A stretch of DNA of 64,000 nucleotides. Source: Oscillospiraceae bacterium. Its GTDB lineage: Bacteria; Bacillota; Clostridia; UBA1212; SIG427. The translations under genes were made by a program, and so were the position numbers. The stretch spans positions 98,753-162,752 of the forward strand of contig SVJE01000006.1 in the NCBI GenBank assembly GCA_015069135.1. The letters run 5' to 3'. Positions within the stretch are counted from its first letter, which is position 1. Every line of letters begins with the position of its first letter. The notes beneath the pieces were generated by a model. The model saw only the letters and a list, made by a program, of their open reading frames with translations. It was not told the origin of the DNA and searched no databases. Below are positions 4,931 to 40,478 of this stretch, piece by piece.

Positions 4931-5542
4931 ATGTACATAATAGCTGCAACACATAACAAGAATAAATTAAGAGAATTTGGTGAGATTTTTGGCTGCCCGG
5001 TTCATTCAGCATCAGCTCTTGGTGCCTGTTCTGATCCTGAAGAAACAGGTATTACTTTCAGTGAAAATTCCAAAATCAAGGCAACAGCTATATATGATGA
5101 ACTTATGGAAGTGGGAAATTTACCTGAAGGTGATTTCTGGGTAATAGCTGATGACTCAGGTCTTTGTGTAGATGCCTTAGACGGTGCCCCAGGTGTGTAT
5201 TCTGCAAGATATGCAAGTACAGACGGACACAATGCAACGGATGAAGAAAATGTGGAAAAACTTCTTAAAGACCTTGAAAACGTTCCGGAAGAAGAAAGAA
5301 AGGCTGCCTTTGTGTGTGCTATTACTGCTGTTAACCGACAGGGAGAGGTACATACTGCAGAAGGTTTTCTTAAGGGATATATTGCTTTTGAACCTGTTGG
5401 CAACGGAGGCTTTGGTTACGATCCTGTTATGTATATAAAAGAGAAGGCCAAGACCGTTGCAGAGATGACTCCGGATGAAAAAAATGCTATCAGCCACAGA
5501 GGTCAGGCTCTTAAAGTGCTTAAGGAGAAAATATGGTTCTGA
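4931..5542 (+). CDS. rdgB: Non-canonical purine NTP pyrophosphatase (RdgB/HAM1)
   Basis: ATHNKNKLRE, ADDSGLCVDALDGAPGVYSARY, GFGYDP and KNAISHRGQAL motifs. Confidence 0.95.
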   Translation: MYIIAATHNKNKLREFGEIFGCPVHSASALGACSDPEETGITFSENSKIKATAIYDELMEVGNLPEGDFWVIADDSGLCVDALDGAPGVYSARYASTDGHNATDEENVEKLLKDLENVPEEERKAAFVCAITAVNRQGEVHTAEGFLKGYIAFEPVGNGGFGYDPVMYIKEKAKTVAEMTPDEKNAISHRGQALKVLKEKIWF

Positions 5543-6684: not shown

Positions 6685-7190
6685 TGAATATAGTTTTGGT
6701 AGAGCCTGAGATTCCGCAGAATACAGGTAATATTGTAAGAACTTGTGCCGGATGTAACGCAAGATTGCATTTAATAAGACCTCTTGGTTTTTCTACAGAT
6801 GATAAATATCTTAAGAGGGCTGGTCTTGATTATTGGCATTTTGTTGATATAAATTATTATGATAGTTTTGAAGAATTGGTGGAAAAGGCAACTTCAGAAA
6901 ATAATGGAGTTAAACCTAATTTCTACTACGGCACTACAAAAGGTAAAAAACGTTATAGTGACATAACATATACCAATGATGATTATCTTGTTTTCGGTAA
7001 AGAAACAAAGGGGCTTCCGGAAAGCCTTTTAGCGGAGAATTATGACCATTGTATCCGCATTCCTATGAGGGAGGAATTCCGTTCCCTGAATCTTTCAAAT
7101 GCCGTGGCAATTGTTATTTTTGAGGCTATGCGTCAGTTAGGTTTCCCGGATATGGAAACAGAGGGCGCTTTAAGAGATTATGATATGTAA
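6684..7190 (+). CDS. trmL: tRNA (cytidine/uridine-34-2'-O)-methyltransferase
   Basis: LVEPEIPQNTGNIVRTC, KRAGLDYW, VFGKETKGLP and RSLNLSNAVAI motifs. Confidence 0.95.
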   Translation: MNIVLVEPEIPQNTGNIVRTCAGCNARLHLIRPLGFSTDDKYLKRAGLDYWHFVDINYYDSFEELVEKATSENNGVKPNFYYGTTKGKKRYSDITYTNDDYLVFGKETKGLPESLLAENYDHCIRIPMREEFRSLNLSNAVAIVIFEAMRQLGFPDMETEGALRDYDM

Positions 7191-7205
7191 AGGGAGGCTT
7201 GAAAT

Positions 7206-9074
7206 ATGAAATTAGGATTTAAAGGCGATTATTCAGAAGTTAAAAAAGGTATTGAGATTTTACAGAAAAGACTTGGTTTTGTTCCGGTGTTTGATGGCGA
7301 GGGTGAACTTACCATTGATGTTTCTGTAGACAATAGCCATGCTCTTTGTTATAGCATTAAAGGTAATGAGGGAAGTATAAGCTATGAAAAGCCATGTAAC
7401 TTTTTCAGAGCTCTGGCACTTGGTTTGGCTGCATATAAAAGAGGAGAAGCGGTTAATAGATCTGAAGACAGTAATTTTACCATGGATGGCGTTATGGTAG
7501 ACTGTTCAAGAAATGCTGTACCCACTGTAGCAGGGGCTAAAGATATGCTGGAGGCAATGGCGTGTATGGGTCTTGATATGATGATGCTTTACACTGAAGA
7601 TACATATGAGATTCCTGAATTGCCATACTTCGGTTACATGAGAGGCAAGCTTTCACAGGCTGAAATTAAGGAGATTGATAAGTATGCTATTGACCTTGGT
7701 ATTGAGCTTATTCCTTGTATCCAGACAGCGGCTCACCTTATGCATGCCCTTAAATGGCCTTGGGCAGATCCTATCTGGGATTTTATTGATGCTTTGCTGG
7801 TTGGTGAAGAAAAGACTTACGAGTTCCTTGACAAGGCTATTAAGAGTTGCGCTGATACTTTCACCACAAAGAGAATACATATCGGTTATGATGAAGCTAT
7901 CTGGGTTGGCAGAGGTAAGTATTTAGAACGCCACGGTTATGAGAAAAACACAGTTCTCTTGCAGAGACATTTAGTAAGAGTTAAGGAAATTCTTAAGAAA
8001 TATGACCGTATTCCTATGATGTGGGGAGATATGTACCTTAATATGTACAATGAAAACGGCACCAAGGAAGAAGATGGGATGGGTGTTGTTTATTGGAACT
8101 ACTATGAGCATGAACAGGAAACTTATGAGAAGACTATAGATAAGTACAGAGAATTTTCTGATAATGTTATCTTTGCCGGCGGTTCCTGGACATGGGGTAT
8201 GTTGGTAGCTCCATACTATCAAACTTTAACTACAACTATGCCTGCCCTTCGCGCTTGCGTTACAAAGGGTGTTAAAGAAGTGCTGGCCACTATGTGGGGT
8301 GATGACGGACAGGAAACAACCTGGTTTGCAGGACTTCCTGGACTTCAGATGTATGCAGAGTACAGATACTGTGGCAAGGACATAGATTCTGTAACAGAGG
8401 AACTGATTGCTTCACGTATGAAAGATTGTATAGGTGCTGATTTACAGGCTTTTAAAGATATGGCAAGAATTGATCTTTTCAAGGATGCTAAGGAGTACAG
8501 GGAGTTTCCGGGAAATCCTTCTAAAGCAGTGCTCTGGTCTAACCCTATGATGAGTGTTTATGACAAGGATTTGGAGAATGCAGGAAAGCTCTTTGATTTA
8601 GATGCTCACTATCAGGAATTTGCTGACAAGCTTAAGGTTCACGCTAAATCCGGCAATGCTTATTCTTGGTTGTTTGAATTCCCTGCAGAATTGGCTTCTT
8701 TCTGTAAATCAAAATGGAGCTTAGGTTTAAGACTTAAGAAGGCTTATGATGAAGGGGATAAGGTAACTCTTGGTAAAATAGCAGACGAGATGGTTTCTTT
8801 AATTGAACAGGCTAAACTCTTAAGAGAACTCCATAAGAAACAGTGGTTCATGAACTGTAAGTCTTTTGGTTGGGATGTAATGGATGTACGTTACGGAGCT
8901 CTTGTAAATCACATGGAAACCGGTGTAGAGAGAATCAGATTTTATGTAGAGGGTAAAATTGAAGTTCTTGAGGAACTGGCTCAGGAAAGACTTCCTTTCG
9001 GAGAAACAGTAGATGAAATGGGCCGTATGGGAGTTACACATTGGAATAGAGTAGTTACAGGTTGTCCGTTGTAA
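7206..9074 (+). CDS. Glycoside hydrolase family 20 (beta-N-acetylhexosaminidase-like)
   Basis: VMVDCSRNAV, ELIPCIQTAAH, IHIGYDEA (catalytic DE pair) and TMWGDDG motifs. Confidence 0.85.
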   Translation: MKLGFKGDYSEVKKGIEILQKRLGFVPVFDGEGELTIDVSVDNSHALCYSIKGNEGSISYEKPCNFFRALALGLAAYKRGEAVNRSEDSNFTMDGVMVDCSRNAVPTVAGAKDMLEAMACMGLDMMMLYTEDTYEIPELPYFGYMRGKLSQAEIKEIDKYAIDLGIELIPCIQTAAHLMHALKWPWADPIWDFIDALLVGEEKTYEFLDKAIKSCADTFTTKRIHIGYDEAIWVGRGKYLERHGYEKNTVLLQRHLVRVKEILKKYDRIPMMWGDMYLNMYNENGTKEEDGMGVVYWNYYEHEQETYEKTIDKYREFSDNVIFAGGSWTWGMLVAPYYQTLTTTMPALRACVTKGVKEVLATMWGDDGQETTWFAGLPGLQMYAEYRYCGKDIDSVTEELIASRMKDCIGADLQAFKDMARIDLFKDAKEYREFPGNPSKAVLWSNPMMSVYDKDLENAGKLFDLDAHYQEFADKLKVHAKSGNAYSWLFEFPAELASFCKSKWSLGLRLKKAYDEGDKVTLGKIADEMVSLIEQAKLLRELHKKQWFMNCKSFGWDVMDVRYGALVNHMETGVERIRFYVEGKIEVLEELAQERLPFGETVDEMGRMGVTHWNRVVTGCPL

Positions 9075-15378: not shown

Positions 15379-17169
15379 ATGAAAGATACATTAAAAGCTG
15401 TTAAGTTGAATTTTAAGGGTTTGAGAAGAATGTGGGAGTTGGATAAATGGTTTGTAATTATAACTATCGTATGGCCGCTTTTGTTCATGCCTATAAGACT
15501 CTTCGATCTATATGTAATAAAGTATATTACGGATGGTCTAGTTGACGGTAAACCATTTTCTTCGATTCTAACAATAATTTTAATATCTTTAGCAACGCAT
15601 CTGATACGAAATTTAATAGGTAACATATACAATAAAACATACGATTTGATGAAGAGAGAAGAAATTGAACAGAAGTTGCGTATTAATTTTTTAGGAAAGG
15701 TTTCTTCTTTGGACATACAATGTTTTGATGATGCTGAATTTTATGACAAGTATGTTAAAGCATTACAGGAAGCAGATTCCAGATATTTTCAAGTATTAGA
15801 TTGCCTGAAAAATTTTGTACAAAGTGTGGTTACATTAATTGCATATTTTTCTGTTGTAATTAGTTTAGATGCAACTTTAATGATTTTTGCCGCTTTGCCG
15901 ATTTTTGTTGATCTTATTTTTATAGGACGACAAGATAAGCTGAAATTTAAATTCGGAGAAGAAGGGGTTCCCATTGGCAGAAGGGTTAACTATATAATGC
16001 GCATATTTTACCTGAGTAATTATGCCAAGGAAATCAAACTAAATAATGCAGGTGGTTTTTTTGTGAAAAAGCTTAAAAAGAACTATGAGGATTATAACAA
16101 GTTACTTAAGAAGCTGGGTCACGACGAAATAAAACTTACTTTGCCGGAACATTTTTTGTCAATAATAATTCCTGTATTATTGCAGATATATCTTGTTGCC
16201 AGAACTGCCTTTGGTTTTCTTACATTAGGTAGCTATACAATGCTTGAATCTACTACATGGCAGGTTTCAGGCTACCTTACAAGTATTATTAAAATTGTTC
16301 CTCAGTTAAAGCAAAATTGTATGTATCTGGAGAATTTAGATGCAATTCTTGATTATGAGCCAATAATAAAGGACAAAGAGAATGCTGTACTTTTAGATAA
16401 AAAGATTCTTCATGAGATTAGTGTTAAGAATCTTACATTTACTTATCCTAACAACGATAGTCCTACGTTACATAATGTCTCTGTGGATATTAAACCCGGA
16501 GAAAAGATTGCTATTGTTGGATATAACGGAGCAGGTAAGTCTACATTTATAAAGCTTCTTATGAGACTTTATGATGTGGATCAGGGTTCTGTGGAAATCG
16601 ATGGTCTTAATATACAAGAATACAGCCAGAGTTCATTGCGGGATAATTTTGGTGTTGCTTTTCAGGATTTTCAGTATTTTGCCTATGATTTTGCAGAAAA
16701 TATTATATTTAAAGATTCATCAGAGGTAACGGAAGATGAAAAGGAACAAATGGATCTTGCCATAAGCTATGCCGGGCTTAAGGAAAAAATTGATACGTTT
16801 AATCAGGGTTTGTTTACACAGCTTACTAAAGAATTTGATAGCGAAGGTGCGATGCTTTCCGGTGGGGAAACTCAAAAACTGGCATTGGCAAGAGCCTTTG
16901 TTAAAAAAAGTAATATTTTAATTCTTGACGAGCCTACCAGTGCTATGGACCCTATAGCTGAGAATCGTTTATATCAGAATATGTTTAAGATAGCTGAAGG
17001 TAAGACACTGATATTTATTTCCCATAAACTGTCTTCTGCAAAAATGGCTGACAGAGTATTGTTGTTTGAGGATGGTCGGATAATTGAATCAGGAAGCCAC
17101 GAAGAATTAATGGAATTTGATGGTAAATATGCAGAGATGTTTAAGACCCAGTCAAGCTATTACGCCTGA
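15379..17169 (+). CDS. ABC exporter, fused TMD-NBD (copy 1)
   Basis: TM helices, GYNGAGKST, LSGGETQK, ILDEPT; collinear with 38688-40478. Confidence 0.93.
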   Translation: MKDTLKAVKLNFKGLRRMWELDKWFVIITIVWPLLFMPIRLFDLYVIKYITDGLVDGKPFSSILTIILISLATHLIRNLIGNIYNKTYDLMKREEIEQKLRINFLGKVSSLDIQCFDDAEFYDKYVKALQEADSRYFQVLDCLKNFVQSVVTLIAYFSVVISLDATLMIFAALPIFVDLIFIGRQDKLKFKFGEEGVPIGRRVNYIMRIFYLSNYAKEIKLNNAGGFFVKKLKKNYEDYNKLLKKLGHDEIKLTLPEHFLSIIIPVLLQIYLVARTAFGFLTLGSYTMLESTTWQVSGYLTSIIKIVPQLKQNCMYLENLDAILDYEPIIKDKENAVLLDKKILHEISVKNLTFTYPNNDSPTLHNVSVDIKPGEKIAIVGYNGAGKSTFIKLLMRLYDVDQGSVEIDGLNIQEYSQSSLRDNFGVAFQDFQYFAYDFAENIIFKDSSEVTEDEKEQMDLAISYAGLKEKIDTFNQGLFTQLTKEFDSEGAMLSGGETQKLALARAFVKKSNILILDEPTSAMDPIAENRLYQNMFKIAEGKTLIFISHKLSSAKMADRVLLFEDGRIIESGSHEELMEFDGKYAEMFKTQSSYYA

Positions 17170-20743: not shown

Positions 20744-22674
<1,931 letters not shown>

Positions 22675-22805: not shown

Positions 22806-23660
22806 ATGACAATTAAAATCGCAATTAATAGCTTAGAATGGAATATTAAAATTTTTTTACCAGATAAAAAGAGTTTAAGTTTTTTTTGTAATGTGTTTTC
22901 CTGTTATGATCTCTCTTTTTCAAGTGATAAAGACAATGCGGATTGCATAGTTGAATTATGCAATGACCCAATGAAGTATAATTTAAAGTTTACAAAAAAT
23001 AATACTTATTTTGAAAAAAGAAGTATAGAGGAGATTTACGTCGCAATTTGTGTATATTTATTTAATTTAAAAAACTATTATAACGAAAATTGCTGGATTT
23101 TACATGGAGCTGCATTTATCTATAAAAAACAAACCTGTTTAATTATTGGTCCCACTCATTCAGGCAAGTCTACATTAATTACACAATTGATATCACAGAA
23201 AGGTGTAAAGTATATTACAGATGATTCTATTGTATTTGATAAAAAAACACTTAGTATTATTCCTTTTCCAAAGCCAATAAATTTAAGAGATGTCGATTGT
23301 GTATATGATTTTATTAATCATAATCATATTTACAAGGCTAATAATAAACTATTAAAAACATATGTGTATAATCCTACTAATGCAATTTTTTTGGACAAAA
23401 TTAATTGCATTAATATAAATATTTTTGTATTAAACAGAAAAAAAGAAATTAGAAATATTTCTATACAAGATATAGGTAATGTAGAACAATTTTTAGAAAT
23501 ATTATTAAATTCATTTCGAACGCAATTCTCTGAAAATTACAATATTGCAAGTAAACTTTTAAATCAAACGCAAAGTATGTTTAAAGTGAATTATAGAAAT
23601 AAAACTGAAGCTCTCGAACTTGTTTTTTCAAAGTTAGATACTACAGGTCTTAGACAATAG
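22806..23660 (+). CDS. HPr-kinase-like P-loop kinase (RiPP-associated type)
   Basis: ILHGAA, IIGPTHSGKSTL (Walker A) and YITDDS; directly upstream of the precursor. Confidence 0.75.
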   Translation: MTIKIAINSLEWNIKIFLPDKKSLSFFCNVFSCYDLSFSSDKDNADCIVELCNDPMKYNLKFTKNNTYFEKRSIEEIYVAICVYLFNLKNYYNENCWILHGAAFIYKKQTCLIIGPTHSGKSTLITQLISQKGVKYITDDSIVFDKKTLSIIPFPKPINLRDVDCVYDFINHNHIYKANNKLLKTYVYNPTNAIFLDKINCININIFVLNRKKEIRNISIQDIGNVEQFLEILLNSFRTQFSENYNIASKLLNQTQSMFKVNYRNKTEALELVFSKLDTTGLRQ

Positions 23661-23698
23661 ATATAAATTAATTATTGTACAGAAAGGAGGTGATTACA

Positions 23699-23884
23699 AT
23701 GAAATACAGTAAACCGCAAATCAAAATAATGTCAGAACATGAAATTGAAGAAAGTGTAAAAGTTATGGCTAATTCATCATTTGAAGCGGGTGGGTGTTTA
23801 ACATACGGACTCTATTCACAATGGCATTATAATTGTGATACAGGGGCCGTGGCCAATTACGATTTCTATGCCGATTTTGGTTAA
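23699..23884 (+). CDS. RiPP precursor peptide candidate 1 (61 aa)
   Basis: AAAGGAGGTG RBS then ATG 23699. MKYSKPQIKIMSEHEIEESVKVMA-NSSFEAGGCLTYGLYSQWHYNCDTGAVANYDFYADFG: YxxP leader motif, acidic leader, aromatic/Cys-rich core, next to a PqqD gene. Confidence 0.85.
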   Translation: MKYSKPQIKIMSEHEIEESVKVMANSSFEAGGCLTYGLYSQWHYNCDTGAVANYDFYADFG

Positions 23885-24131
23885 AATATAACCTGAAAAT
23901 TATACTTTGGCCTGTAGTATATTTGTTTATGTTAAGATTATAAACAAAATGATAAAAAAACAATTGTTAAATATTTTAAATGAGGAATATTGTTAAAGTT
24001 AACTTCAATGTTAGGGAAGCGGCCTTTATATGAAGCAACCAAACTCAGTTTAACAAACCTGTTAAATAAATTCATTTAAGTTATACAGATACATTTATGT
24101 ATCTATATAACATTATACGAGGAGATGTGTA

Positions 24132-24413
24132 ATGTATTATATAAAAAACAATGATTTGAATGTAGAAACATTTGAAGATGGAACAGTATTATATGATTCT
24201 GAAAAAAAAGAACTTTATTTACTAAACGAAACTGCCTCTTTTTTATGGAAAAATTGTGAAAACAATAACAAAGAAAAACTTATTAATTGCTTTTTGCTAG
24301 CATTAGAACATGAAGCAGATGCTCCTTCTTCTCATATCATAAAAGAAGAATGTAGTACCCTTATTGATATTCTAGTAAAAAAGGGAATAATTTATGAAAG
24401 GTATATAAACTGA
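24132..24413 (+). CDS. PqqD-family RiPP recognition element (RRE)
   Basis: 93 aa; VLYDSEKKELYLLNETASFLW ... LVKKGII, typical of stand-alone PqqD proteins. Confidence 0.85.
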   Translation: MYYIKNNDLNVETFEDGTVLYDSEKKELYLLNETASFLWKNCENNNKEKLINCFLLALEHEADAPSSHIIKEECSTLIDILVKKGIIYERYIN

Positions 24414-24415
24414 TT

Positions 24416-25465
24416 ATGTATAAAAATTTTATAATCAAGGGATGTTATATAGAATTGACAACAAGATGCAATTTGTCCTGCGTTCATTGTTATAATAATT
24501 CTGGTAAAGAAAATTTCCACTTGACTTTTGATAATTTAATTGGTGTATTAGATTTGTTATTAAAACATGAAGTTAAAAAAATTACGTTGTCAGGTGGAGA
24601 ACCATTTTTATATGAAAGAATATACGATTTATTAAAATATATATCTCAAAAAAACTTTTTAGTAACCTTTGCTACTAATGCTACATTAATTAATAAAAAA
24701 AATATAGAATTTATTTCTTCTCTTAAAAATAAAGAAAATATTGTTTTTCAAGTTAGTTTAGAAGGTGCAACCCCCGATACAAATGATGTAATACGGGGAA
24801 CAAATAGTTTTTCAAAAGTTATTAAAACTATTGATTTGTTAAAATGTTATAATTTAAAGTACTACTTTAGAGTGTCAATTTCCCCATTTAATTCTAATGA
24901 TATTGAAAAAATTGTTGAATTTGCAATAAAAAGAAAAACAAAGCATTTGGACTTTTCGTTTGTTTTACCATATGGCAGAGCAAGGGATAAAGCTTTATTT
25001 TTAAATGATGAACAAAAGGTTGAAGTGTTAACAAATATCATTGATTTACACAAAAAGTATAAAAAAGATATTAATGTTTTAATACCACACTTTGAACGAC
25101 AAGGTTGTCCAATTTTTGGCGAACGAAAAGAGGCTGTTGTTATTCCAAGGATTGATGCAAAAGGAAATGTTTTTCCGTGTCAACTTATGAATTTGGCAGA
25201 GTATTCTATAGGGAATATTTATAATGATAATTTGTTTGATTTACTAAAATCAGACAAATTAATAGATATAGATAATTTTATTAAATACAAAAATAAATAT
25301 AACTCTGAGTGTAAAAAATGTTATGCTTTTTCTATATGCAAATATGGCTGTCCAGCTGTAAGTGTTGGAAATAATTTGATCTCAAGCGGAGATGGTTTTT
25401 GCGAATATAGAAAAAAGGTATTTAAAGATATTTTAAATAAAAAGGTGTTTTGTGAAAAAAGTTGA
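24416..25465 (+). CDS. Radical SAM / SPASM peptide maturase
   Basis: CNLSCVHC (CxxxCxxC), SGGEP, then GCP...IDAKGNVFPC...IGNI...CKKCYAFSICKYGCP...C. Confidence 0.92.
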   Translation: MYKNFIIKGCYIELTTRCNLSCVHCYNNSGKENFHLTFDNLIGVLDLLLKHEVKKITLSGGEPFLYERIYDLLKYISQKNFLVTFATNATLINKKNIEFISSLKNKENIVFQVSLEGATPDTNDVIRGTNSFSKVIKTIDLLKCYNLKYYFRVSISPFNSNDIEKIVEFAIKRKTKHLDFSFVLPYGRARDKALFLNDEQKVEVLTNIIDLHKKYKKDINVLIPHFERQGCPIFGERKEAVVIPRIDAKGNVFPCQLMNLAEYSIGNIYNDNLFDLLKSDKLIDIDNFIKYKNKYNSECKKCYAFSICKYGCPAVSVGNNLISSGDGFCEYRKKVFKDILNKKVFCEKS

Positions 25466-27080
25466 TTTTGCTGATTATAATAGAAAAGATGATTTTCCGT
25501 CAAATACTGTAAAACGTATAAAAGAAATATTAGATAAAAAGAATATAAGTACAGTGATAACAAATTTACTTTCCTACGAAAAAGCTTGGTACTCGGTTCG
25601 AGTAGAACTTTTAGGAATAGATAATATAGGAGTTAACGGAAAAGGTATTACAAAGGAATACGCTTTGGCTAGTGCATATGCAGAATTAATGGAAAGGTTG
25701 CAAGCTGGATATTTAATCAAGCCTTATAATAAACAAGTAAAGCAGTTACTATATAAGCATACTTATATTGATTTTTTTTCGGGAGAAAAATTTAGGCTTG
25801 AAAATAATTTACTTGAAACTTCATGTGGTTCAAATGGACTTGCTGCTGGAAATACAAAAAAAGAAGCCATAGTACAGGCTTTGTGTGAGACTTTAGAACG
25901 TAAAGCAATAAAGGAAATATTTTTTTGTGAAAATTTTAATTGTGGACATTTTCCGATAAGTTATTTTGAAAATAATAAATGCTATATACTTTTAAAATAT
26001 ATTTTAGATAAAGGGTATAATCTCCTTGTTTTTGATTGTACATCTGGTGGCAAGATGCCCGTATTAGGGGTTATGATATGTGATGCAAATCAAAATAAAT
26101 ATATTTGTAAAATTGCCAGTGATATCAATATTGATATTTGTATTCAAAGATGTATTACTGAGATTTTTCAAGGTAAAAGATTTGATATAATTTTTAATAA
26201 CTGTCTAAAAAATAAATATGATAATAATATATTAATCTATAATAATGATTTTTATAAAAGTTATGAATATATAAGATTTGTAATTGATGGAAGTGGTTTT
26301 TTTCCTCCTAATGTATTAGAAAATATATTTAACAAGGAATCTTCGATATCTAATCTTAATGTTTTTTGTAATAAAAAACTTAATAATGCACAGGCGTTAA
26401 GTAAAATAAGCGTCATAGTTAAAAAATTTAGCAATAGACTCTTTATCAAAGATTACTCTATATTAGGTTTTCCTACGTATCGAATATATATACCAAATTT
26501 TAGTGAAGCATTTTTATTGCCAGGAGATACTCCTCAAAAATATATTGAAATAATAAAAGGTATACAAAAATGTGTATTTACAAACTCGCAGAGTGTTTCA
26601 AATTATACCGTTTCAAATTTATTAAAGTTTTTATATCAGGTAAACAATTTTCCGACTTTAATATATAATTTTGATTTAGCGAGAATATGTGGAATAGAAA
26701 TAACATTTAGTGCATTTCGTGATATTGATTTACTTATTGCTTTATGTCACTTATATTTAAATAATAGGTATGAGGCATTTGCGTATGTAAACAAATATTA
26801 TTTACATATACAACATCATCATGCACATATTTTTTTTAATTTATTACAATCCATGAAAAATAATAATTTTAATCAATATTTAGAATATATAAAGTTTAAC
26901 TGTAAAGATGAAAAAATTTTATTTTTTATAAATTATATTGAAATGATATGCAATAAAAAAATGGGTATATTTAATTGCGATATAAAAAATTGTAAAACCT
27001 GTTTTTTTGAAAAAAGATGTAATCATATAAAAGCTCAAAAAACTATCAACCAATTATTCGAAAGTACAGAGAATTATTAA
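25452..27080 (+). CDS. YcaO-like protein
   Basis: NGKGITKEYALASAYAELMERLQ and SNGLAAGNTKKEAIVQALCETLER ATP/Mg-binding motifs; GFPTYRIYIP. Confidence 0.88.
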   Translation: MKKVDFADYNRKDDFPSNTVKRIKEILDKKNISTVITNLLSYEKAWYSVRVELLGIDNIGVNGKGITKEYALASAYAELMERLQAGYLIKPYNKQVKQLLYKHTYIDFFSGEKFRLENNLLETSCGSNGLAAGNTKKEAIVQALCETLERKAIKEIFFCENFNCGHFPISYFENNKCYILLKYILDKGYNLLVFDCTSGGKMPVLGVMICDANQNKYICKIASDINIDICIQRCITEIFQGKRFDIIFNNCLKNKYDNNILIYNNDFYKSYEYIRFVIDGSGFFPPNVLENIFNKESSISNLNVFCNKKLNNAQALSKISVIVKKFSNRLFIKDYSILGFPTYRIYIPNFSEAFLLPGDTPQKYIEIIKGIQKCVFTNSQSVSNYTVSNLLKFLYQVNNFPTLIYNFDLARICGIEITFSAFRDIDLLIALCHLYLNNRYEAFAYVNKYYLHIQHHHAHIFFNLLQSMKNNNFNQYLEYIKFNCKDEKILFFINYIEMICNKKMGIFNCDIKNCKTCFFEKRCNHIKAQKTINQLFESTENY

Positions 27081-27541
27081 TGACAAATATTGAATATAAA
27101 ATATTATTAACAAAAATAAAGACTCTTGGAAGGTATCAGATATATGTATCGGGAATGAGCATGTTTCCGTGTTTGTTGCCAAATGATTTGATAACAATAG
27201 AGTCACAAGATGAATATAATATTGGAAATGTTGTTGTTTTTTTATATAAGCATGGAGAGATATTGGTCCATAGAATTGTTAAAAAAAATAATTACACTAT
27301 TTTTTGCAAAGGTGACAATTCGTTTCGATTGGAAGATATACAAGAGTCACAAATTGTTGGAAAAGTAATATCTTATTGTAGAAATGGTTTGAATTGTCTG
27401 ATTAAAGCTGCTGACGAAGAATTTATTAATATGTCATATAGAGTTGGTCAGGAGTTTAGAAAAGTTGGGTATGATAAAGAGAAACTAATGTTGACAAAAA
27501 ACTATATCAAATATTATTATAGATATATAAAAATAGATTAA
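27080..27541 (+). CDS. S24/S26-family peptidase
   Basis: SGMSMFP (Ser), LVHRIV (His) and KGDN motifs; TAATG overlap with the YcaO stop codon. Confidence 0.82.
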   Translation: MTNIEYKILLTKIKTLGRYQIYVSGMSMFPCLLPNDLITIESQDEYNIGNVVVFLYKHGEILVHRIVKKNNYTIFCKGDNSFRLEDIQESQIVGKVISYCRNGLNCLIKAADEEFINMSYRVGQEFRKVGYDKEKLMLTKNYIKYYYRYIKID

Positions 27542-27574
27542 GCCATATACAATGGTTTTGATAAGGAGTTAACT

Positions 27575-28231
27575 ATGTTGGAATTTGCGATGTGGGTAAT
27601 AGGTATAATTGCTTTCTTGGTGTGGGGTATTCCTGTAATTAAATTTATTATCAAGCGTTTATGGTTTGCTTTTCGTCTGTTTTTGAAGTCTACATTTTGT
27701 AAAGGTTTTGAATATTGCTATAAAAATCCATTTTCTGTTTTTTCTTTACGAAGAGGCAGGAATTCTGATGTATTGGTTTATTATGGTGGAACCATATATA
27801 TTATAAAACTGTGCGGTGTGTTTAGAAAATTTACTGATATCATTGTACATGATAATGATTTCTGGCAGATTGATACATATATTGGCACGGGATATTTGTT
27901 CAGAGGCACTAAAAATACAGACACAGAGAAGGTTTTGTTTAATTTACCCAGAGAAAAAGAATCGTTTGAAAGTAATATATGGAATATTAGCGGAATTAGT
28001 CAGATAAATACAATGCTATTGTTGTTGCCAAAACCAAAAGCTTTTGGAGTTCATGTAGAGACTTACAATGAATGGTTGTGTAGCGGTAATTTATGTGGTG
28101 GGAATATTGTAGGAACCACAAGATATTTTTGGAGAACACTTAGAGAGCTTAAAGAAGAATCGGAAAACTTCATGTATGTTGACGAAAAGCAATGGGAGTT
28201 AATTAAAAAGGAGTATAAAAAAGCTAAATGA
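27575..28231 (+). CDS. Hypothetical protein with N-terminal membrane anchor
   Basis: aaggag RBS; hydrophobic N-terminus; overlaps the next gene. Confidence 0.6.
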   Translation: MLEFAMWVIGIIAFLVWGIPVIKFIIKRLWFAFRLFLKSTFCKGFEYCYKNPFSVFSLRRGRNSDVLVYYGGTIYIIKLCGVFRKFTDIIVHDNDFWQIDTYIGTGYLFRGTKNTDTEKVLFNLPREKESFESNIWNISGISQINTMLLLLPKPKAFGVHVETYNEWLCSGNLCGGNIVGTTRYFWRTLRELKEESENFMYVDEKQWELIKKEYKKAK

Positions 28232-29733
28232 AACTAAGTTTGTTTTCACGAGAATATGTTCATACTGATTTACAATATGAAGACAACCTGAAAATGCGAG
28301 CTTTTTTTGAGCACTTTTATTCCAAAGAAACAAGTAAACTTCTTTTGGATTTTTGTTCTGTATATTGCGATAAGAAAGAACTTGTAAAGCGACAGAGCTT
28401 TTTTCGAGAGATAACAGAGAAAACTAAATGTAGGGAATTTTTAAAAAGTATAAGAAGCTTTTATCGTGATGTAGAAAATGCTGTTTTGATTTACAAAAAA
28501 AAGACGGATTTGCCTGACAAAGATATTTGGGGCATAAATCTCCTTAATCAATATGCTAAGTTTGTAAAATCAGTTATTGAAATTAAGAGTGGCTCAGGTT
28601 TGGAATTTTGCTCGGAGATATTAAAGTCGTTCTATTGTAAGATAGAAAACTTTTATGTTTCAGAAGGTTTTTACGATTTATGTAAAAGTTTGGATGATGT
28701 TGAATTAAAGCTTTCGGAAATAAGGCAAATGAATATTTATGGTGATTATATTAATGCCCTTATTTCTTCCTATGGCTTGAAATCCGGAGTCCAAGAAAAT
28801 ATCTATGAGACAATAGCTTTATATCTATCCGATTTGGGTTTAGAATCTCCTAAAAAAACGAATGTTTCTAATGCCAGGGATATGGATTTATATGAAAAAT
28901 ATATTAGTTATATTGTATCAAAAACACCGGCTGTTTCAGAAGTACTAAGAAAAGTCAATGATAAATTTTCAGAATTAATACAGTCAATAGAATTGATAGA
29001 AATTACAGATATAAAGACTTCTTTAGCATGTTGTGAATTGTATGATATGTTAGTAAAAAATAAAATTCACTTGTGTTATCCATTGATTTCTGAAGATGGT
29101 AGTTTTTCTGTGAAAGATGCAAGTGATATAACATTACTGATGCAAAAAGATAATATAATTACTAACAGTATGGATCTTTCGAAAAGTGAGCAGGTATCTT
29201 TTATTTCTGGTGCTAATGGTGGTGGAAAAACTTCGTTTGTAAGAGCTTTAGGTATTTGTAATGTGATGTTCTCCTGTGGTTTATTTGTTCCGGCGATTTC
29301 AGGAAAATTTTCCATATGTGATAACATTTTTACAGTGTTTCCCCATAAAGAGCTGATATATCAAGAAGGGCGTTTTGTTGCTGAAAAAGGTTTTGTTGAA
29401 AAAGTGATGTCTGAAGCAACTCCTAACAGCTTGGTTTTGACTAATGAACTGTTTTCCAGTACAAATGAGTCAAAAGGCTGTAAGCATTATGAGCTTATTG
29501 TGTCGGGATTGCAAGAAAAAGGGGTTCGCTCATTTTTAGTTACACATTTTACAGATGTAATAGAGATTTTTGCTTCAAAAAATTATCCATGCTTTTCTTG
29601 TGTAATGGAGAATGATGTTGTAACTTTTAAAATTGAAAGAACCGGAAAACATTCTTCTTCTGTAAATATCATATTAGAAAAATATAGTTTAAGAAAACAT
29701 CAGTTGAAAGAGAGGTTAGAGTTAAATGATTGA
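28228..29733 (+). CDS. MutS-related ATPase-domain protein A
   Basis: ISGANGGGKTSFVRALG, GLFVPA, LVLTNELFSSTN and FLVTHF (MutS domain V); no mismatch-binding domain recognised. Confidence 0.75.
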   Translation: MKLSLFSREYVHTDLQYEDNLKMRAFFEHFYSKETSKLLLDFCSVYCDKKELVKRQSFFREITEKTKCREFLKSIRSFYRDVENAVLIYKKKTDLPDKDIWGINLLNQYAKFVKSVIEIKSGSGLEFCSEILKSFYCKIENFYVSEGFYDLCKSLDDVELKLSEIRQMNIYGDYINALISSYGLKSGVQENIYETIALYLSDLGLESPKKTNVSNARDMDLYEKYISYIVSKTPAVSEVLRKVNDKFSELIQSIELIEITDIKTSLACCELYDMLVKNKIHLCYPLISEDGSFSVKDASDITLLMQKDNIITNSMDLSKSEQVSFISGANGGGKTSFVRALGICNVMFSCGLFVPAISGKFSICDNIFTVFPHKELIYQEGRFVAEKGFVEKVMSEATPNSLVLTNELFSSTNESKGCKHYELIVSGLQEKGVRSFLVTHFTDVIEIFASKNYPCFSCVMENDVVTFKIERTGKHSSSVNIILEKYSLRKHQLKERLELND

Positions 29734-31075
29734 TAAGAATACAGTTTCTAACCTTAATTTGACCGATATAACAAGAGTGTTTTGTATTAATGAAAAACAG
29801 TGTGGATATGTTGTCGAAGTCTTATCTTCCATAGAAAAATCACCTGAGATAATTAGAAAAAAACAGGAAATTGTAAAGGATTTTGTAAATAATCCTGATT
29901 TTTTTCTTGATTGTAAAAATGTGTTGGCACAGTTTGAAGGGGTTATTTCTGAACGGAAAACAGTAAAGCGACTATCTTTTCAACCTCGTAGCATATATGA
30001 AGCTAATCAAAGAAAGAAAACCAGAACAACATTTGGTAATCTTTCTGATATATCAAAAATGTTGCTTAAATATATTCGATTGTATGTTAATATGAGCAAT
30101 TTGTTTAATAAATACAATTTTAAGTCTGAATATATGACAGACCTTAAAGAGTATTTTGTTAACTTTGCTACTAAAGAAAGTTTTCAGAAGTTTGGAAATG
30201 TTATAAATCAGCTTTCTAATATAGAAGTTGAAAATAGTAACATTTGTATGAATGTTCTTCTTGATAAAGAAATCGGCAAAATACATGTTTTCTTTGTTTC
30301 TGTTAATGGGGAAAAACAAAGTCCTGGGATAGAATTTGTCAATCAGACAGATACAGAAATTATTACAAGACTTACAGGGGTTGCTGTTAAAGATTTATGC
30401 GATTATCTTAATGATATTGTTGAAATCATGGAAGATAAACTGTTAAGTTTTTATGATGAGCTTATGTTTTATAGATTTGCCATCAGATACATCGAGGAGC
30501 TAAAGGAAAGAGGTTTACCGATTTCATATCCTGATATTGCTGATGAAAATGACAAAATTCATTTTAATGAACTTTATAGTATAGAGTTAATAGCAAAAAA
30601 TCTTACTAAAATAGTGCCACATGATATAGAACTTTCGCGCTTCACTGTTTTGCATGGAGACAATAATACCGGAAAGACATGCTATGTAAGAAGTGTTGCT
30701 TTGGCATATATTTTTGCCCAGGCGGGTCTTCCTTTACCAGCCATATCAGGTGTGATTTCTCCAGTAACAAATATACTTTCTCAGTTTGCCGTAGGAGAGA
30801 AGAATTTGGGACGATTTGAGGAAGAAGTAAGTGAAGTAAGTGAAATTGTAGATAAAGTAAACTCTAAAACATTGATTATTTTCAATGAAACATTTCAAAG
30901 CACGGTTTATGAAGAGATTGCTCAACCTTATATGGATATACTTGAAGGTATTGTATCAGCAGGAGGGCATGCATTGGTTGTTTCACATAATGAAATGTTT
31001 ATTGAGCTTTGTACGAAAAAAACAGATGTGACATTGTTAAAAATGGATAATGAACATAAGATAATAAATAGTTAA
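29726..31075 (+). CDS. MutS-related ATPase-domain protein B
   Basis: LHGDNNTGKTCYVRSVALAYIFAQAGLPLPA, GRFEEE, IIFNETFQST and VVSHN motifs. Confidence 0.75.
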   Translation: MIDKNTVSNLNLTDITRVFCINEKQCGYVVEVLSSIEKSPEIIRKKQEIVKDFVNNPDFFLDCKNVLAQFEGVISERKTVKRLSFQPRSIYEANQRKKTRTTFGNLSDISKMLLKYIRLYVNMSNLFNKYNFKSEYMTDLKEYFVNFATKESFQKFGNVINQLSNIEVENSNICMNVLLDKEIGKIHVFFVSVNGEKQSPGIEFVNQTDTEIITRLTGVAVKDLCDYLNDIVEIMEDKLLSFYDELMFYRFAIRYIEELKERGLPISYPDIADENDKIHFNELYSIELIAKNLTKIVPHDIELSRFTVLHGDNNTGKTCYVRSVALAYIFAQAGLPLPAISGVISPVTNILSQFAVGEKNLGRFEEEVSEVSEIVDKVNSKTLIIFNETFQSTVYEEIAQPYMDILEGIVSAGGHALVVSHNEMFIELCTKKTDVTLLKMDNEHKIINS

Positions 31076-31326
31076 AAATATATGAGCTCTTTTTATAAAT
31101 GAACCGTTCAATTGCTTTTAGCAATATAGATTTTGAAGAAATAGAATAAAAAGAGATTAAAAACTAAGTGCTAACATATAAGATGTTTTACTATATTAAG
31201 GAAGTCAATTAGGTATTAATACTTTTGTTTATATTTGTAACATAAAACTAGATGTGAAAATTTTTTTGTTCCACCTTAAATTAAGAGAAATCCTAAATAA
31301 GACCAATATGACATAATAAGTTATTA

Positions 31327-32241
31327 ATGCTAAAACAATTGGATGATGAAATGAATCATAATTTATTCAAAAAAATTCAAGGACAGTGTTTTTTTTATAA
31401 TATTAAAAATTTGTTCTCTGTTCCATATGCTGTTATTAAAGGCGAAGCATTATCAAAACAGGCATATGGAAGTGTTGGTCAGCGAACAAGCAGTGATATT
31501 GATATTTTGGTTTCACGTAAGTATTTAAATGATATTGAGCTATCTTTACTTTCTGCTGGATTTGAAAATACTCAAAAATCACGTCAAGATAGAATTTTAA
31601 TGTTATCCAATTCGCATCAAGTTGCGCCGTGGATAAAAGTGTTTAAGCCGTGGGGTTATTTAGTAGTGGATCTGAATTTTGATATTTTCTGGGGTGAATA
31701 TGAAGGAACACGCATAAATATTGAAGAGTTTTTATCAGATACTATTGATGTGGATATTTATGAAAATACAATAAAAGCTCTTTCTCCGCCCAAGGCTATG
31801 GTGCAACTTGTTTTACATAATTACAAAGATATGAATTCCGTTTTTTTGCTTACTACACGGAATCGTTTAAAAAAGACCATGTTTGAGGATTTATATTATC
31901 TTTTAAAGAACAATTTGGATACAATTTCAATAGAAAAGCTATATACAATAAGTGAAGAATACAAAATTATTCCATATGTTTTTTATATGTTTTATTATAC
32001 CAGTAAAATATTTAATGATGATATTTTAAAAAGATATGTTGAAGCCTTTAGGACAAAAGAAGGTGATGCTTTGCTTGATTTTTATGGTTTGTGTGATAAA
32101 GAGCGTAAAGAATGGAAATGCGATTTTGAAACACGATTAAAATCAAAAAATATATTTGATTTAATAAAAAATGATTTGACGGAAAAAGACAAAGAGAAGA
32201 TTGCAATAAATAAACGTATATTTATGGGAGTAGAGGAATGA
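31327..32241 (+). CDS. Nucleotidyltransferase family protein (NTP_transf_5-like)
   Basis: YAVIKGEALSKQAYG...RTSSDIDILV motif of the nucleotidyltransferases found in Bacillota RiPP loci. Confidence 0.8.
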   Translation: MLKQLDDEMNHNLFKKIQGQCFFYNIKNLFSVPYAVIKGEALSKQAYGSVGQRTSSDIDILVSRKYLNDIELSLLSAGFENTQKSRQDRILMLSNSHQVAPWIKVFKPWGYLVVDLNFDIFWGEYEGTRINIEEFLSDTIDVDIYENTIKALSPPKAMVQLVLHNYKDMNSVFLLTTRNRLKKTMFEDLYYLLKNNLDTISIEKLYTISEEYKIIPYVFYMFYYTSKIFNDDILKRYVEAFRTKEGDALLDFYGLCDKERKEWKCDFETRLKSKNIFDLIKNDLTEKDKEKIAINKRIFMGVEE

Positions 32242-38687: not shown

Positions 38688-40478
38688 ATGAAAGAAATTA
38701 TAAATGTTATCAAAATTAATTTTAAAGGTCTAAAACATATTTGGGATATAAACAAAGGTTATGTAATATTATCTTTTATATGGCCTATTATCTTTATGCC
38801 AATACAGCTATTTGAAGTATATGTTATAAAATATGTTACAGACGGTCTTGTGTATGGCACTCCTTTTGCTACACTGTTGTTTATAATAATATCCCTGGGT
38901 TTACTTAAATTATTGCGCAATTTTATAGGAAATTTCTATAATAAAAGATACCAAGTTATAAAGAACGAAGAGATTGAGCAAAAATTGCGCCTTAATTTTT
39001 TAAAAAAAGTATCATCTCTTGATATAGAATGTTTTGATAATGCGGAGTTCTACGATAAATATGTTAAGGCTTTACAGGAAGCTGACTCTAGATATTTTCA
39101 GGTTTTGGGACATTTGAGTAACTTTTTATATAGTTTAATAACTTTATGTGCTTATTTTTCTTTAATTATTAGTTTAGATGGTTTTTTAATAGTATTTGCC
39201 GTGCTTCCCGTATTAGTAACACTAATTTTTTCTGGAAAACAAAACAAGATGAGTTTTAATTTTGGTGAAGAGACTGTTCCTATTGGCAGGAAAGTTAATT
39301 ACATTATGAGAATTTTTTATCTTAGTAATTATGCAAAGGAAATTAAGTTAAATAGAGCAGGCGGCTTTTTTATTGATAAACTTAAGAAATACTATAATGA
39401 ATATAATGTAAAATTAAAAAAGTTTGGAATTGATGAATTGAAAATTACGCTACTAGAGCACGGATTATCAATTGTAATACCAGTATTACTTCAAATATAT
39501 CTAGTAGCTAAGACTGCCTTTGGTTTATTGTCCGTAGGTAGCTATGCAGCATTAGAGTCAACTACTTGGCAGGTGTCCGGCTATTTGCAGTCAGTAATAC
39601 AAATCATTCCACAGCTAAAGCAAAACAGCAGGTTTCTTAAAAATCTGGATGAAATATTGGAGTATGAGCCTAAAATTAAAGATAAAGTAGAACCAAAGGT
39701 ATTGGATAAAAAAATCTTACATGAAATATCTGTTAAAAATCTAACTTTTACATATCCTAATAATGAGCAGCCTACATTGCATAACATTTCAATGAAAATA
39801 AAGCCTGGAGAAAAGATTGCCATAGTAGGATATAACGGGGCTGGCAAGTCCACATTTATTAAGCTATTAATGAGACTATATGATACAAGTATAGGCTCTG
39901 TCAAAATAGATGGTGTAGATATAAAAGACTATAGTCAGGATTCCTTGCGTGATAATTTTGGTGTAGCTTTTCAGGATTTTCAGTATTATGCGTATAATTT
40001 AGCAGAAAATATTTTGTTTAAAGAATCTGATAAAATGACCAATGCGGAAGAAACAAAAATGAATCAGGCTGTGGAATATGCCGGTCTGAAGGATAAAATA
40101 GATACATTTAATGCTGGTATATATACAATGCTTACTAAAGAATTTGATAGTGAAGGAGCGATTCTTTCCGGTGGTGAGACTCAAAAATTAGCACTGGCCA
40201 GAGCGTTTGTGAAAGATTGTAGCATTCTAATTTTAGACGAACCAACCAGTGCCATGGATCCAATTGCCGAAGATAAGCTATATAAAAATATGTTTAAAAT
40301 AGCAGAGGGTAAGACCCTTATATTTATATCACATAAACTGTCTTCTGCTAAAATGGCTGACCGGGTATTCTTGTTTGAAAACGGTAGAATTATAGAATCA
40401 GGTAGTCATGAAGAACTTATGGAATTAAACGGGAAATATGCTGAAATGTTCAATACTCAATCAAGCTATTATTCATAA
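38688..40478 (+). CDS. ABC exporter, fused TMD-NBD (copy 2)
   Basis: GYNGAGKST, LSGGETQK, ILDEPT; 596 aa like copy 1. Confidence 0.93.
   Translation: MKEIINVIKINFKGLKHIWDINKGYVILSFIWPIIFMPIQLFEVYVIKYVTDGLVYGTPFATLLFIIISLGLLKLLRNFIGNFYNKRYQVIKNEEIEQKLRLNFLKKVSSLDIECFDNAEFYDKYVKALQEADSRYFQVLGHLSNFLYSLITLCAYFSLIISLDGFLIVFAVLPVLVTLIFSGKQNKMSFNFGEETVPIGRKVNYIMRIFYLSNYAKEIKLNRAGGFFIDKLKKYYNEYNVKLKKFGIDELKITLLEHGLSIVIPVLLQIYLVAKTAFGLLSVGSYAALESTTWQVSGYLQSVIQIIPQLKQNSRFLKNLDEILEYEPKIKDKVEPKVLDKKILHEISVKNLTFTYPNNEQPTLHNISMKIKPGEKIAIVGYNGAGKSTFIKLLMRLYDTSIGSVKIDGVDIKDYSQDSLRDNFGVAFQDFQYYAYNLAENILFKESDKMTNAEETKMNQAVEYAGLKDKIDTFNAGIYTMLTKEFDSEGAILSGGETQKLALARAFVKDCSILILDEPTSAMDPIAEDKLYKNMFKIAEGKTLIFISHKLSSAKMADRVFLFENGRIIESGSHEELMELNGKYAEMFNTQSSYYS

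Follow-up and report, generated by a model that had tools for sequence, protein, structure and literature searches.

A probable RiPP gene cluster in an Oscillospiraceae bacterium that joins a module of the linear-polyphosphorylated-peptide type to a radical SAM-SPASM enzyme and a YcaO protein

The DNA analysed here is a 64,000-nucleotide stretch of contig SVJE01000006.1 from an Oscillospiraceae bacterium (assembly GCA_015069135.1; the whole stretch is called the window hereafter), and the genes in question lie on its forward strand at 22806-32241. We consider it likely that they form a cluster for a RiPP (a peptide made by the ribosome and modified after translation), in which a module of the type known from linear polyphosphorylated peptides (LPP) is combined with a cross-linking radical S-adenosylmethionine (rSAM) enzyme of the SPASM type and with a YcaO protein. 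The cluster is real and very rare, and it probably makes a peptide type that has not yet been characterised. All coordinates are positions in the window unless a locus is named, and loci compared, which are genomes or metagenome contigs, carry L-numbers. The genes and features, including a candidate exporter lying further downstream, are these:

22806-23660, + strand: HprK-like P-loop kinase (LppK/PadeK-like), with TIGR04352 HprK_rel_A as best NCBIfam match and a motif in common with its homologues at L108, L054 and L023.
23685-23690, + strand: ribosome-binding site AGGAGG, 8 nt 5' of the precursor ATG, read directly from the DNA.
23699-23770, + strand: precursor leader, residues 1-24 (MKYSKPQIKIMSEHEIEESVKVMA), with a Y3-x-x-P6-x-I8 motif that putatively binds the RiPP recognition element (RRE); proposed cut after A24.
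23771-23884, + strand: precursor core, residues 25-61 (NSSFEAGGCLTYGLYSQWHYNCDTGAVANYDFYADFG), and stop codon; S26, C33, G37, Y44, C46, G49 and Y54 are invariant.
24132-24413, + strand: discrete PqqD-type RRE (LppB/B1-like; PF05402, E 5.7e-8).
24416-25465, + strand: rSAM enzyme with a full seven-cysteine SPASM domain and no fused RRE (PF04055 9.3e-25; PF13186 1.6e-8).
25452-27080, + strand: E. coli-type YcaO with a C-terminal cysteine motif (PF02624, 7e-31).
27080-27541, + strand: soluble homologue of signal peptidase I of the archaeal/endoplasmic-reticulum (ER) type (LppS/SipW-like), the proposed leader peptidase (Peptidase_S24 PF00717 3.4e-7; TIGR02228 1.8e-10).
27575-28231, + strand: 218-amino-acid (aa) protein with an N-terminal membrane helix (KD19 2.53 at residue 8), a candidate immunity or accessory protein.
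28228-29733, + strand: first MutS-domain-V ATPase, KamC-like over most of its length (PF00488 4.1e-17; NF052383 KamC 1.4e-22, below cut-off).
29726-31075, + strand: second MutS-domain-V ATPase (PF00488 1.4e-12).
31327-32241, + strand: NTP_transf_5 nucleotidyltransferase-like protein (LppN/PsmN-like; PF14907, 8.2e-20).
38688-40478, + strand: ATP-binding cassette (ABC) exporter, an uncertain candidate for export of the peptide (PF00005); a second copy lies at 15379-17169.

The PqqD and rSAM genes are separated by 2 bp, the rSAM and YcaO genes overlap by 14 bp, and the YcaO and peptidase genes overlap by 1 bp, bearing out the tight packing of these four genes that an earlier sequence-only reading of this DNA had claimed. 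The six genes named in that reading (kinase, 61-aa precursor, PqqD, rSAM/SPASM, YcaO and S26 peptidase) all lie where it had placed them, and PqqD, Radical_SAM with SPASM, YcaO and Peptidase_S24 pass their Pfam thresholds. Its gene list was correct but incomplete, as it missed the membrane protein and the MutS_V pair downstream (27575-31075). It also mentioned nucleotidyltransferases such as PsmN, but the range it considered ended at 27541, so the NTP_transf_5 gene at 31327-32241 was excluded.

We count the 61-aa open reading frame (ORF) as a genuine precursor gene because of its strong ribosome-binding site and because its comparison with L001 gives a proportion of synonymous differences (pS) of 0.91, with synonymous sites saturated, against a proportion of non-synonymous differences (pN) of 0.145 (0.124 for the core). 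L001, a 553-bp contig from ENA, carries the one close homologue, a full 61-aa peptide that is 77% identical to the window precursor; a kinase-like gene ends before it and a PqqD gene begins after it. In the same comparison the other two frames of the ORF are full of stops. Contigs of the same species as the window occur in many public metagenomes, and as their DNA is at least 99.97% and mostly 100% identical, they are uninformative on selection. Pattern scans with the precursor alignment found no further relatives among 185,579 species genomes and the JGI metagenomes, and six-frame searches with a precursor profile through 400 genomes from each of the class and the phylum returned the window's own copy and one noise match only. 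Five more small proteins came from an exhaustive HMMER search in which a two-sequence profile was run against 1.84 billion proteins. The precursor family is very rare, comprising one species and five metagenome contigs. Aligning precursors from homologous loci had been proposed as a check on the earlier reading, and the 61-aa ORF proves to be a conserved protein-coding gene under purifying selection.

In the alignment of six precursors M1, Y3, P6, A24, S26, C33, G37, Y44, C46, G49 and Y54 are invariant, and the start of the leader is kept as Y-x-x-P-x-(I/V/L/M). The pairing of a YxxP leader with a discrete B1-type RRE, put forward from the window alone, is upheld by the invariance of Y3 and P6 and by the PqqD domain. 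Ala always precedes (N/R)-S, and position -3 relative to the proposed cut is V, A or L, so that a cut after V-M-A under a rule of small residues at -3 and -1 fits the whole family. The core follows the pattern C-x3-G-x6-Y-x-C-x2-G-x4-Y, and a recount of the window core after V-M-A confirms the stated 5 Tyr, 3 Phe, 1 Trp, 1 His and 2 Cys; its C-terminus is Asp-Phe-Gly. The spacer between precursor and PqqD (23885-24131) measures 247 bp in the window versus 59 bp in L001, and the extra DNA contains several local hairpins (z -2.3), among them a near-perfect palindrome at about 24089-24116, just 5' of the PqqD ribosome-binding site. This hairpin-rich spacer may act as an attenuator or operator.

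The neighbourhoods of the more distant precursors extend the comparison from the peptide to its gene context:

L106: partial kinase (hidden Markov model E 9.6e-8), precursor, PqqD and the start of an rSAM gene.
L107 and L110: precursor followed by PqqD, with the start of an rSAM gene also in L107.
L108: B12-binding rSAM enzyme, S24 peptidase (37% identity to the window's), kinase (32% over 217 aa) and precursor.
L109 (10.6 kb): two ABC exporters, precursor, PqqD, rSAM-SPASM, 177-aa membrane protein and two MutS_V ATPases.

A PqqD homologue stands directly 3' of the precursor in L001, L106, L107, L109 and L110, and the order precursor-PqqD-rSAM is kept in five independent loci. The constant core of the precursor family is the precursor with PqqD and rSAM-SPASM, while the kinase and the S26 peptidase recur. 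In L109 the precursor has a TTG start after AAAGGAG, and the rSAM-SPASM enzyme, with 35% identity over its full length, is the closest relative of the window rSAM that we found; the 10.6-kb contig carries no YcaO, kinase or peptidase. The membrane protein and the MutS_V pair occur in the window and in L109, the two loci whose sequence reaches that far.

This conserved order bears on a rival account of the locus, an ordinary LPP cluster that makes a linear phosphorylated peptide, with the rSAM enzyme and YcaO unrelated to it or acting on another substrate. Linear polyphosphorylated peptides were described by Popov et al. (Nat Commun 2026; PMC13381572) from Paenibacillus alginolyticus and other Bacillota; their genes are LppA, LppK, LppB, LppS, LppD and LppN, and the set provides a kinase of the HprK type, a discrete RRE, a SipW-like peptidase and a nucleoside triphosphate (NTP) transferase, as well as an MsbA-like exporter (PMC13381572). 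All LPP core functions are present in the window, as that account would predict. We nevertheless judge it very improbable, given that PqqD, rSAM, YcaO and peptidase genes lie 2 bp apart or overlap, that precursor, PqqD and rSAM keep their order in the five independent loci, and that a merely phosphorylated linear peptide would not need the invariant Cys, Tyr and Gly residues. Nor is an rSAM enzyme or a YcaO reported for LPP clusters in the accessible parts of that account (PMC13381572).

The rSAM enzyme, the presumed maturase of the family, carries the CxxxCxxC motif at C18/C22/C25 and auxiliary cysteines C231, C255, C299, C302, C308, C312 and C329, all invariant among relatives. It falls below every curated NCBIfam cut-off: MftC, ScmE, NirJ2, AlbA, WgkB, StsB and SkfB score 93-116 bits against cut-offs of 265-850, the best match being MftC with 115.6 bits against 265, and the curated sactipeptide and ranthipeptide maturases (AlbA, SkfB, StsB and PapB) score 83-99 bits against cut-offs of 300-850. 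Its closest relatives in a collection of 5.8 billion proteins do not exceed 32% identity and are found in other contexts, and its best solved relatives are SkfB (2.6e-18), anSME and CteB. Homology does not disclose the chemistry of this enzyme, and thioether formation is our preference rather than a result; by analogy, the preference also draws on SkfB and CteB, the closest solved relatives that form thioethers.

The same cluster could also be read with an rSAM enzyme that forms C-C or C-O cross-links on the invariant Tyr44 and Tyr54, as do PqqE, MftC and the cyclophane or darobactin enzymes, the cysteines then ending as a disulfide or as YcaO-made thiazolines. The core is rich in aromatic residues and has two invariant Tyr; an rSAM enzyme that stands alone, paired with a discrete PqqD, recalls PqqE/PqqD and MftC/MftB; among NCBIfam families MftC scores highest, with WgkB and DynA scoring as well; and a free Cys is the usual nucleophile for a YcaO. 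The scores for MftC, WgkB and DynA, however, fall far short of the respective cut-offs and do not surpass those for thioether enzymes, the best solved relative is the thioether-forming SkfB, and the peptides of L023 and L054, two loci described below, contain Cys without a conserved aromatic pattern. We regard aromatic cross-linking as possible, if rather doubtful, and retain thioethers as the preferred chemistry.

The YcaO has intact ATP/Mg motifs (S74-x3-E78-x2-E81 and E146-x2-E149-R150). Its AlphaFold2 (AF2) model has a pLDDT of 87.7 and finds its best fold match in E. coli YcaO 4q86 (TM 0.70 over the full length), whereas superposition on the LynD and TruD heterocyclases and on methanogen thioamidation enzymes is much poorer (TM at most 0.44). 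The protein does not score as a SagD-type YcaO, with 50.5 bits for TIGR03604 against a cut-off of 219. TfuA (PF07812) is absent from the whole genome, and the cluster ORFs scanned contain no ThiF/E1 or nitroreductase/dehydrogenase domain. Near the C-terminus lies the motif C509-x4-C514-x2-C517-x5-C523 (window 26976-27020), which recurs as C-x2-4-C-x2-C-x4-8-C in 23 of the 30 YcaO relatives aligned. E. coli-type YcaOs with this C-terminal four-Cys motif form a large clade of proteins of about 560-620 aa, mostly from Bacillota and Bacteroidota; in one relative (P0131) the YcaO is fused to a true SPASM domain. At 37 of 80 species-genome loci of the clade an rSAM gene lies within 10 kb, and a module of kinase, RRE and NTP transferase is found at one of the 80, L054. 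No close counterpart of the window YcaO exists among 60 relatives. Its closest relatives by score (L021/L022 and L025/L027) belong to another, uncharacterised architecture made up of a 430-440-aa rSAM enzyme, a small ORF of 76-81 aa, a protein of about 600 aa (DUF1611 once), YcaO and one or more ABC exporters, with an AgrB/two-component quorum-sensing set upstream in L021. MutS proteins near other YcaO loci (L061, L068 and L081) were considered and dropped, the L061 match being an 819-aa ORF that is probably an ordinary MutS2 neighbour.

Two further loci combine a YcaO with much of the gene set of the window:

L023/L024: two rSAM enzymes, YcaO (36-37% identical), transglutaminase-core protease, PqqD, HprK-like kinase, NTP_transf_5 and a 34-aa peptide (MKKKYVKPIIKKFGDLETIILSGKSAHSCKTSCN).
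L054: kinase, PqqD, rSAM-SPASM, NTP_transf_5, YcaO and a 36-aa peptide (MKRWKKPCVV...).

Both encode a peptide with a [Y/W]xKP leader, and in a motif scan credible peptides with a [Y/W]x[K/R]P start were confined to loci with a kinase and an RRE (present as fragments in L001). From these two loci and the scan we conclude that the kinase/RRE/rSAM/YcaO toolkit recurs, though rarely, and serves unrelated cores.

Such recurrence bears on the sequence-only proposal that an rSAM-SPASM enzyme and a YcaO stand in place of the lasso cyclase, which in its strongest form makes the two an essential, class-defining pair of a new RiPP class. Both enzymes are indeed encoded in one operon, in genes that overlap by 14 bp; L023/L024 and L054 also join a YcaO to rSAM-SPASM, PqqD, kinase and NTP_transf_5; nearly half of the YcaO-clade loci, as given above, have an rSAM gene close by; and ItfB and ItfD offer a precedent for a YcaO and an rSAM enzyme acting on one peptide (PMC11002830). 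What the proposal does not accommodate is L109, where a family precursor is accompanied by the closest rSAM relative, yet no YcaO lies between the rSAM gene and the genes for the membrane protein and MutS ATPases, so that YcaO is not a conserved partner in the core. Moreover, the YcaO gene is split in two contigs of the same species, and the L023 and L054 precursors are unrelated to the window core, which means that the toolkit recurs and not one product class. An essential pair therefore seems unlikely to us, and the label of a new RiPP class is possible at most. We prefer to read the YcaO as a lineage-specific tailoring enzyme because L109 lacks it at the equivalent position while keeping the other neighbours; the YcaO of the window and the B12-binding rSAM enzyme of L108 look like variable additions of this kind. 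The L108 enzyme, of 530 aa, is encoded at 576-2168 of that locus, upstream of the peptidase, kinase and precursor. Its position suggests a different tailoring step, probably methylation, where the window has YcaO.

The remaining parts of the module were identified from motifs and folds. The kinase matches HprK_rel_A with E 3.6e-11 and 42.7 bits (cut-off 200 bits), and LHGAA..G-x4-GKST..L..G..(Y)LTDD..LR is a motif common to it and the homologues at L108, L054 and L023. Its sequence finds nothing meaningful among solved structures, and an AF2 model built from four sequences is poor (pLDDT 52.6), the top Foldseek matches being exclusively HprK/P or phosphoenolpyruvate carboxykinase (PEPCK) folds. 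The peptidase can be aligned to human SEC11A, its S27 (GMSMFP) falling in the G-x-S-M-x-P motif and its H64 (LVHR) in the V-H-R motif, and acidic residues occur in the stretch K-G-D79-N-S-F-R-L-E85. This alignment, together with the lack of any hydrophobic segment (maximum KD19 1.03), leads us to classify it as a soluble homologue of archaeal/ER-type signal peptidases. The NTP_transf_5 protein is 43% identical over its full length to that of the L023 cluster with YcaO, rSAM and kinase.

Taken together, these genes had been described as accessory genes of the lasso type. The RRE, kinase, S26 peptidase and NTP_transf_5 are all found, but the set is not merely borrowed from lasso clusters, as it is the LPP gene set (PMC13381572). 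The absence of a lasso cyclase and of a B2 protease, as claimed before, holds good: the cluster ORFs scanned contain no Asn-synthase or transglutaminase-core domain, PF13471 is absent genome-wide, and the sole full-length PF00733 match in the genome lies on contig C7, away from the cluster. A lasso Asp/Glu acceptor at positions 7-9 is likewise not conserved: E29, the sole acidic residue near those positions, is Gly in L001 and variable in the family.

From the gene identities, the operon structure, the selection acting on the precursor, and the residues and synteny that are conserved, we infer each chemical step of the pathway that follows. The LPP/paeninodin-type module would consist of the PqqD RRE, the HprK-like kinase, the soluble SipW/Sec11-type serine peptidase and NTP_transf_5; the stand-alone seven-Cys SPASM rSAM enzyme, which always follows the RRE in the precursor family, would be the family-defining maturase; and the E. 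coli-type YcaO, inserted between rSAM enzyme and peptidase in the lineage of the window, would provide an extra ATP-dependent tailoring of the backbone. (i) The RRE would dock the Y3-x-x-P6 leader, [Y/W]xxPx[L/V/I] being the motif bound by lasso and LPP RREs (PMC13381572). (ii) The rSAM enzyme would make intramolecular cross-links through the invariant Cys33 and Cys46, preferably thioethers. (iii) The YcaO would activate one backbone amide, with an azoline or an ItfB-like amidine as likely outcomes and a thioamide as an unlikely one, since TfuA is absent. (iv) The kinase would phosphorylate the invariant Ser26, by analogy with LppK, which polyphosphorylates core Ser3 (PMC13381572). (v) The RRE would hand the leader to the peptidase for a cut after the invariant Ala24, much as LppS, with its Ser/His/Asp triad S29/H68/D93, cuts only if LppB presents the leader (PMC13381572); alternatively the cut could fall after residue 23, in which case A-N-S would parallel the A-Q-S of LppA. 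(vi) An ABC exporter would release the core of about 4.1 kDa. One RRE would thus have to serve four different enzymes.

Several observations weigh against this pathway or parts of it. The rSAM enzyme is about equally distant from MftC, ScmE, AlbA, WgkB and SkfB, and C-C or C-O cross-links would suit the invariant Tyr44 and Tyr54 just as well. The kinase and the RRE stay below curated NCBIfam cut-offs, the kinase model is of the low confidence given above, and the window leader lacks the HQxIxFET part of the LPP leader consensus, YxxPxVLxHQxIxFETxxS (PMC13381572). The membrane proteins of the window and of L109 are similar only weakly (E 0.046). The view of YcaO as an accessory rests on one 10.6-kb contig, L109, and a YcaO elsewhere in that genome is possible. 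In two same-species contigs (L008 and L009) a 1-bp indel splits the YcaO gene into ORFs of 184 and 366 aa, which could be either a homopolymer assembly error or natural loss or phase variation; these two contigs are otherwise identical to the window.

Beyond the peptidase gene, the 218-aa membrane protein has no Pfam, NCBIfam or PADLOC match, and in L109 its position is taken by a 177-aa membrane protein, followed there by two MutS_V ATPases, the three genes lying at 5306-8602 directly after the rSAM gene. In the window these three genes show translational coupling to the RiPP genes, the one for the first MutS ATPase being coupled to its neighbours, and the homologous pair stands at the same position in L109, the second ATPase being 25% identical over its full length to its L109 counterpart. 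A PADLOC search with the membrane protein, the MutS pair, the kinase and the NTP transferase gave generic P-loop noise only. A literature search found no report of this gene architecture, nor of MutS-like proteins in RiPP clusters. Self-protection or assistance to the enzymes would be our guess for the membrane protein and the MutS pair.

The cluster sits inside a block of low GC content in a metagenome-assembled genome of 1.9 Mb: the block spans about 22 to 51 kb, with 26-31% GC as compared to 33-41% on either side, and groES-groEL (20744-22674) lies immediately upstream. On entering the block the GC fraction falls from about 0.34 to 0.26-0.30. Low GC, the lack of a close YcaO counterpart in the 60 relatives and the absence of the precursor from the roughly 800 genomes of class and phylum together point to horizontal acquisition. 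A scan for promoters and terminators gave 73 promoter-like sites against 64.5 expected, which is uninformative in AT-rich DNA, and Rfam gave no matches. The two ABC exporters of the window (596 aa each) lie 5.6 kb upstream of the cluster and 6.4 kb beyond NTP_transf_5, and are 26-28% identical to the L109 pair situated directly upstream of the precursor (L109 1-3406), with 28% for the copy at 38688-40478. Judging from this similarity, one or both may handle the peptide, either instead of the product of the biosynthetic island that adjoins the cluster or in addition to it.

That island begins where the cluster ends. The stop codon of NTP_transf_5 overlaps the start codon of an acyl carrier protein (ACP) gene (ATGA, 32238-32241), and this ACP opens an ACP/FkbH/ligase island running to about 50.3 kb; a blastp comparison found no link between the 342-aa first gene of L023 and the BtrH-like proteins of the window. 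The LppN-like enzyme may use a substrate from the ACP island and so link two apparently separate clusters. LppN itself was inactive in a heterologous host, and its authors postulated a "missing partner" (PMC13381572); if our suggestion is true, an ACP-FkbH-coupled NTP_transf_5 would supply it. In its widest form, this line of thought would make the operon at 22.8-32.2 kb, possibly with the ACP/FkbH/ligase island, a new RiPP class, in which the rSAM enzyme would cross-link at the invariant Cys and Tyr, the YcaO would change the backbone with an Fe-S or Zn site of its own, Ser26 would be polyphosphorylated, NTP_transf_5 would perhaps decorate the phosphate with an ACP-borne unit, and the membrane protein and MutS pair would serve as a dedicated accessory or self-protection module of a kind not seen before. 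We offer this full scheme as a speculation with a small chance of being right in all its parts. More generally, a precursor family that is compact and keeps Cys, Tyr and Ser at sharply conserved positions would provide a system for ordering cross-linking, backbone activation and phosphorylation, and the locus draws attention to two unstudied features: the four-Cys C-terminus of a YcaO clade often found near rSAM genes, and a pair of MutS-like ATPases inside a RiPP operon.

Among known systems, lasso peptides of the paeninodin/pseudomycoidin type (PadeK, PsmK, PsmN) share with the window a B1-type RRE, a [Y/W]xxP leader, a kinase of the HprK type and NTP_transf_5. They differ in that the window genome has no B2 protease or cluster-linked cyclase and in that the C-terminal residue of the precursor is Gly rather than Ser. 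The sactipeptide and ranthipeptide maturases (SkfB, AlbA, CteB and PapB) are likewise seven-Cys SPASM rSAM enzymes acting on leader-bearing peptides with conserved Cys, whereas the RRE of the window is separate instead of fused N-terminally and its precursor is unrelated to theirs. SynChlorMet (ScmC-F) comes close in gene content, with an rSAM-SPASM enzyme, a PqqD-like RRE, a kinase of the HprK type, an S26-fold peptidase and a small Cys-containing peptide, and ScmE and ScmD rank among the better NCBIfam matches, but the scores of the window proteins are low (ScmE 109.8 bits against a cut-off of 400; ScmD 19.6 against 100). Mycofactocin differs in the sub-cut-off MftC score and in its precursor, MftA ending in Gly-Val-Tyr and the window precursor in Asp-Phe-Gly.

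By analogy, ItfB/ItfD is the nearest functional precedent for the combination of YcaO and rSAM enzyme in the window. ItfB of B. thetaiotaomicron (Clark & Seyedsayamdost 2022) is described as a YcaO fused to an [Fe-S]-recognition domain that makes a backbone amidine next to the rSAM enzyme ItfD (PMC11002830; PMC10352776). Both systems place a YcaO beside a SPASM/twitch rSAM enzyme for one peptide, neither has a TfuA or E1-like partner, and ItfB is said to bear an [Fe-S]-recognition domain as the window YcaO bears a conserved four-Cys C-terminus. The itf cluster differs by a GG-type leader and a C39 ABC transporter, by having no RRE, kinase or S26 peptidase, and by a precursor that ends in Ile-Thr-Phe; no ItfA-like peptides ending in ITF occur at the 80 YcaO-family loci.

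The closest comparison is with LPP. The main text and accessible supplements of the LPP account mention no rSAM, YcaO or MutS protein (PMC13381572), and the LPP product is linear, whereas the window has an rSAM-SPASM enzyme beside the RRE and a YcaO. The window leader exceeds that of LPP by about five residues, Ala instead of Thr precedes the proposed cut, and the exporter is not adjacent. The two systems agree in encoding together a discrete RRE, a kinase of the HprK type, a signal-peptidase-I-like peptidase and an NTP transferase (kinase and RRE by their motifs, at scores below cut-off), in the YxxPx[V/L/I] start of the leader, in a Ser two to three residues past the proposed cut, in having no lasso cyclase, and in a patchy distribution within Bacillota of the kind expected of horizontally moved genes. 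The LPP module itself has already been described, and the novelty lies in its junction with an rSAM-SPASM core, a YcaO and a MutS pair. The cluster would thereby extend the LPP family, which was described only in 2026, to radical SAM and YcaO chemistry.

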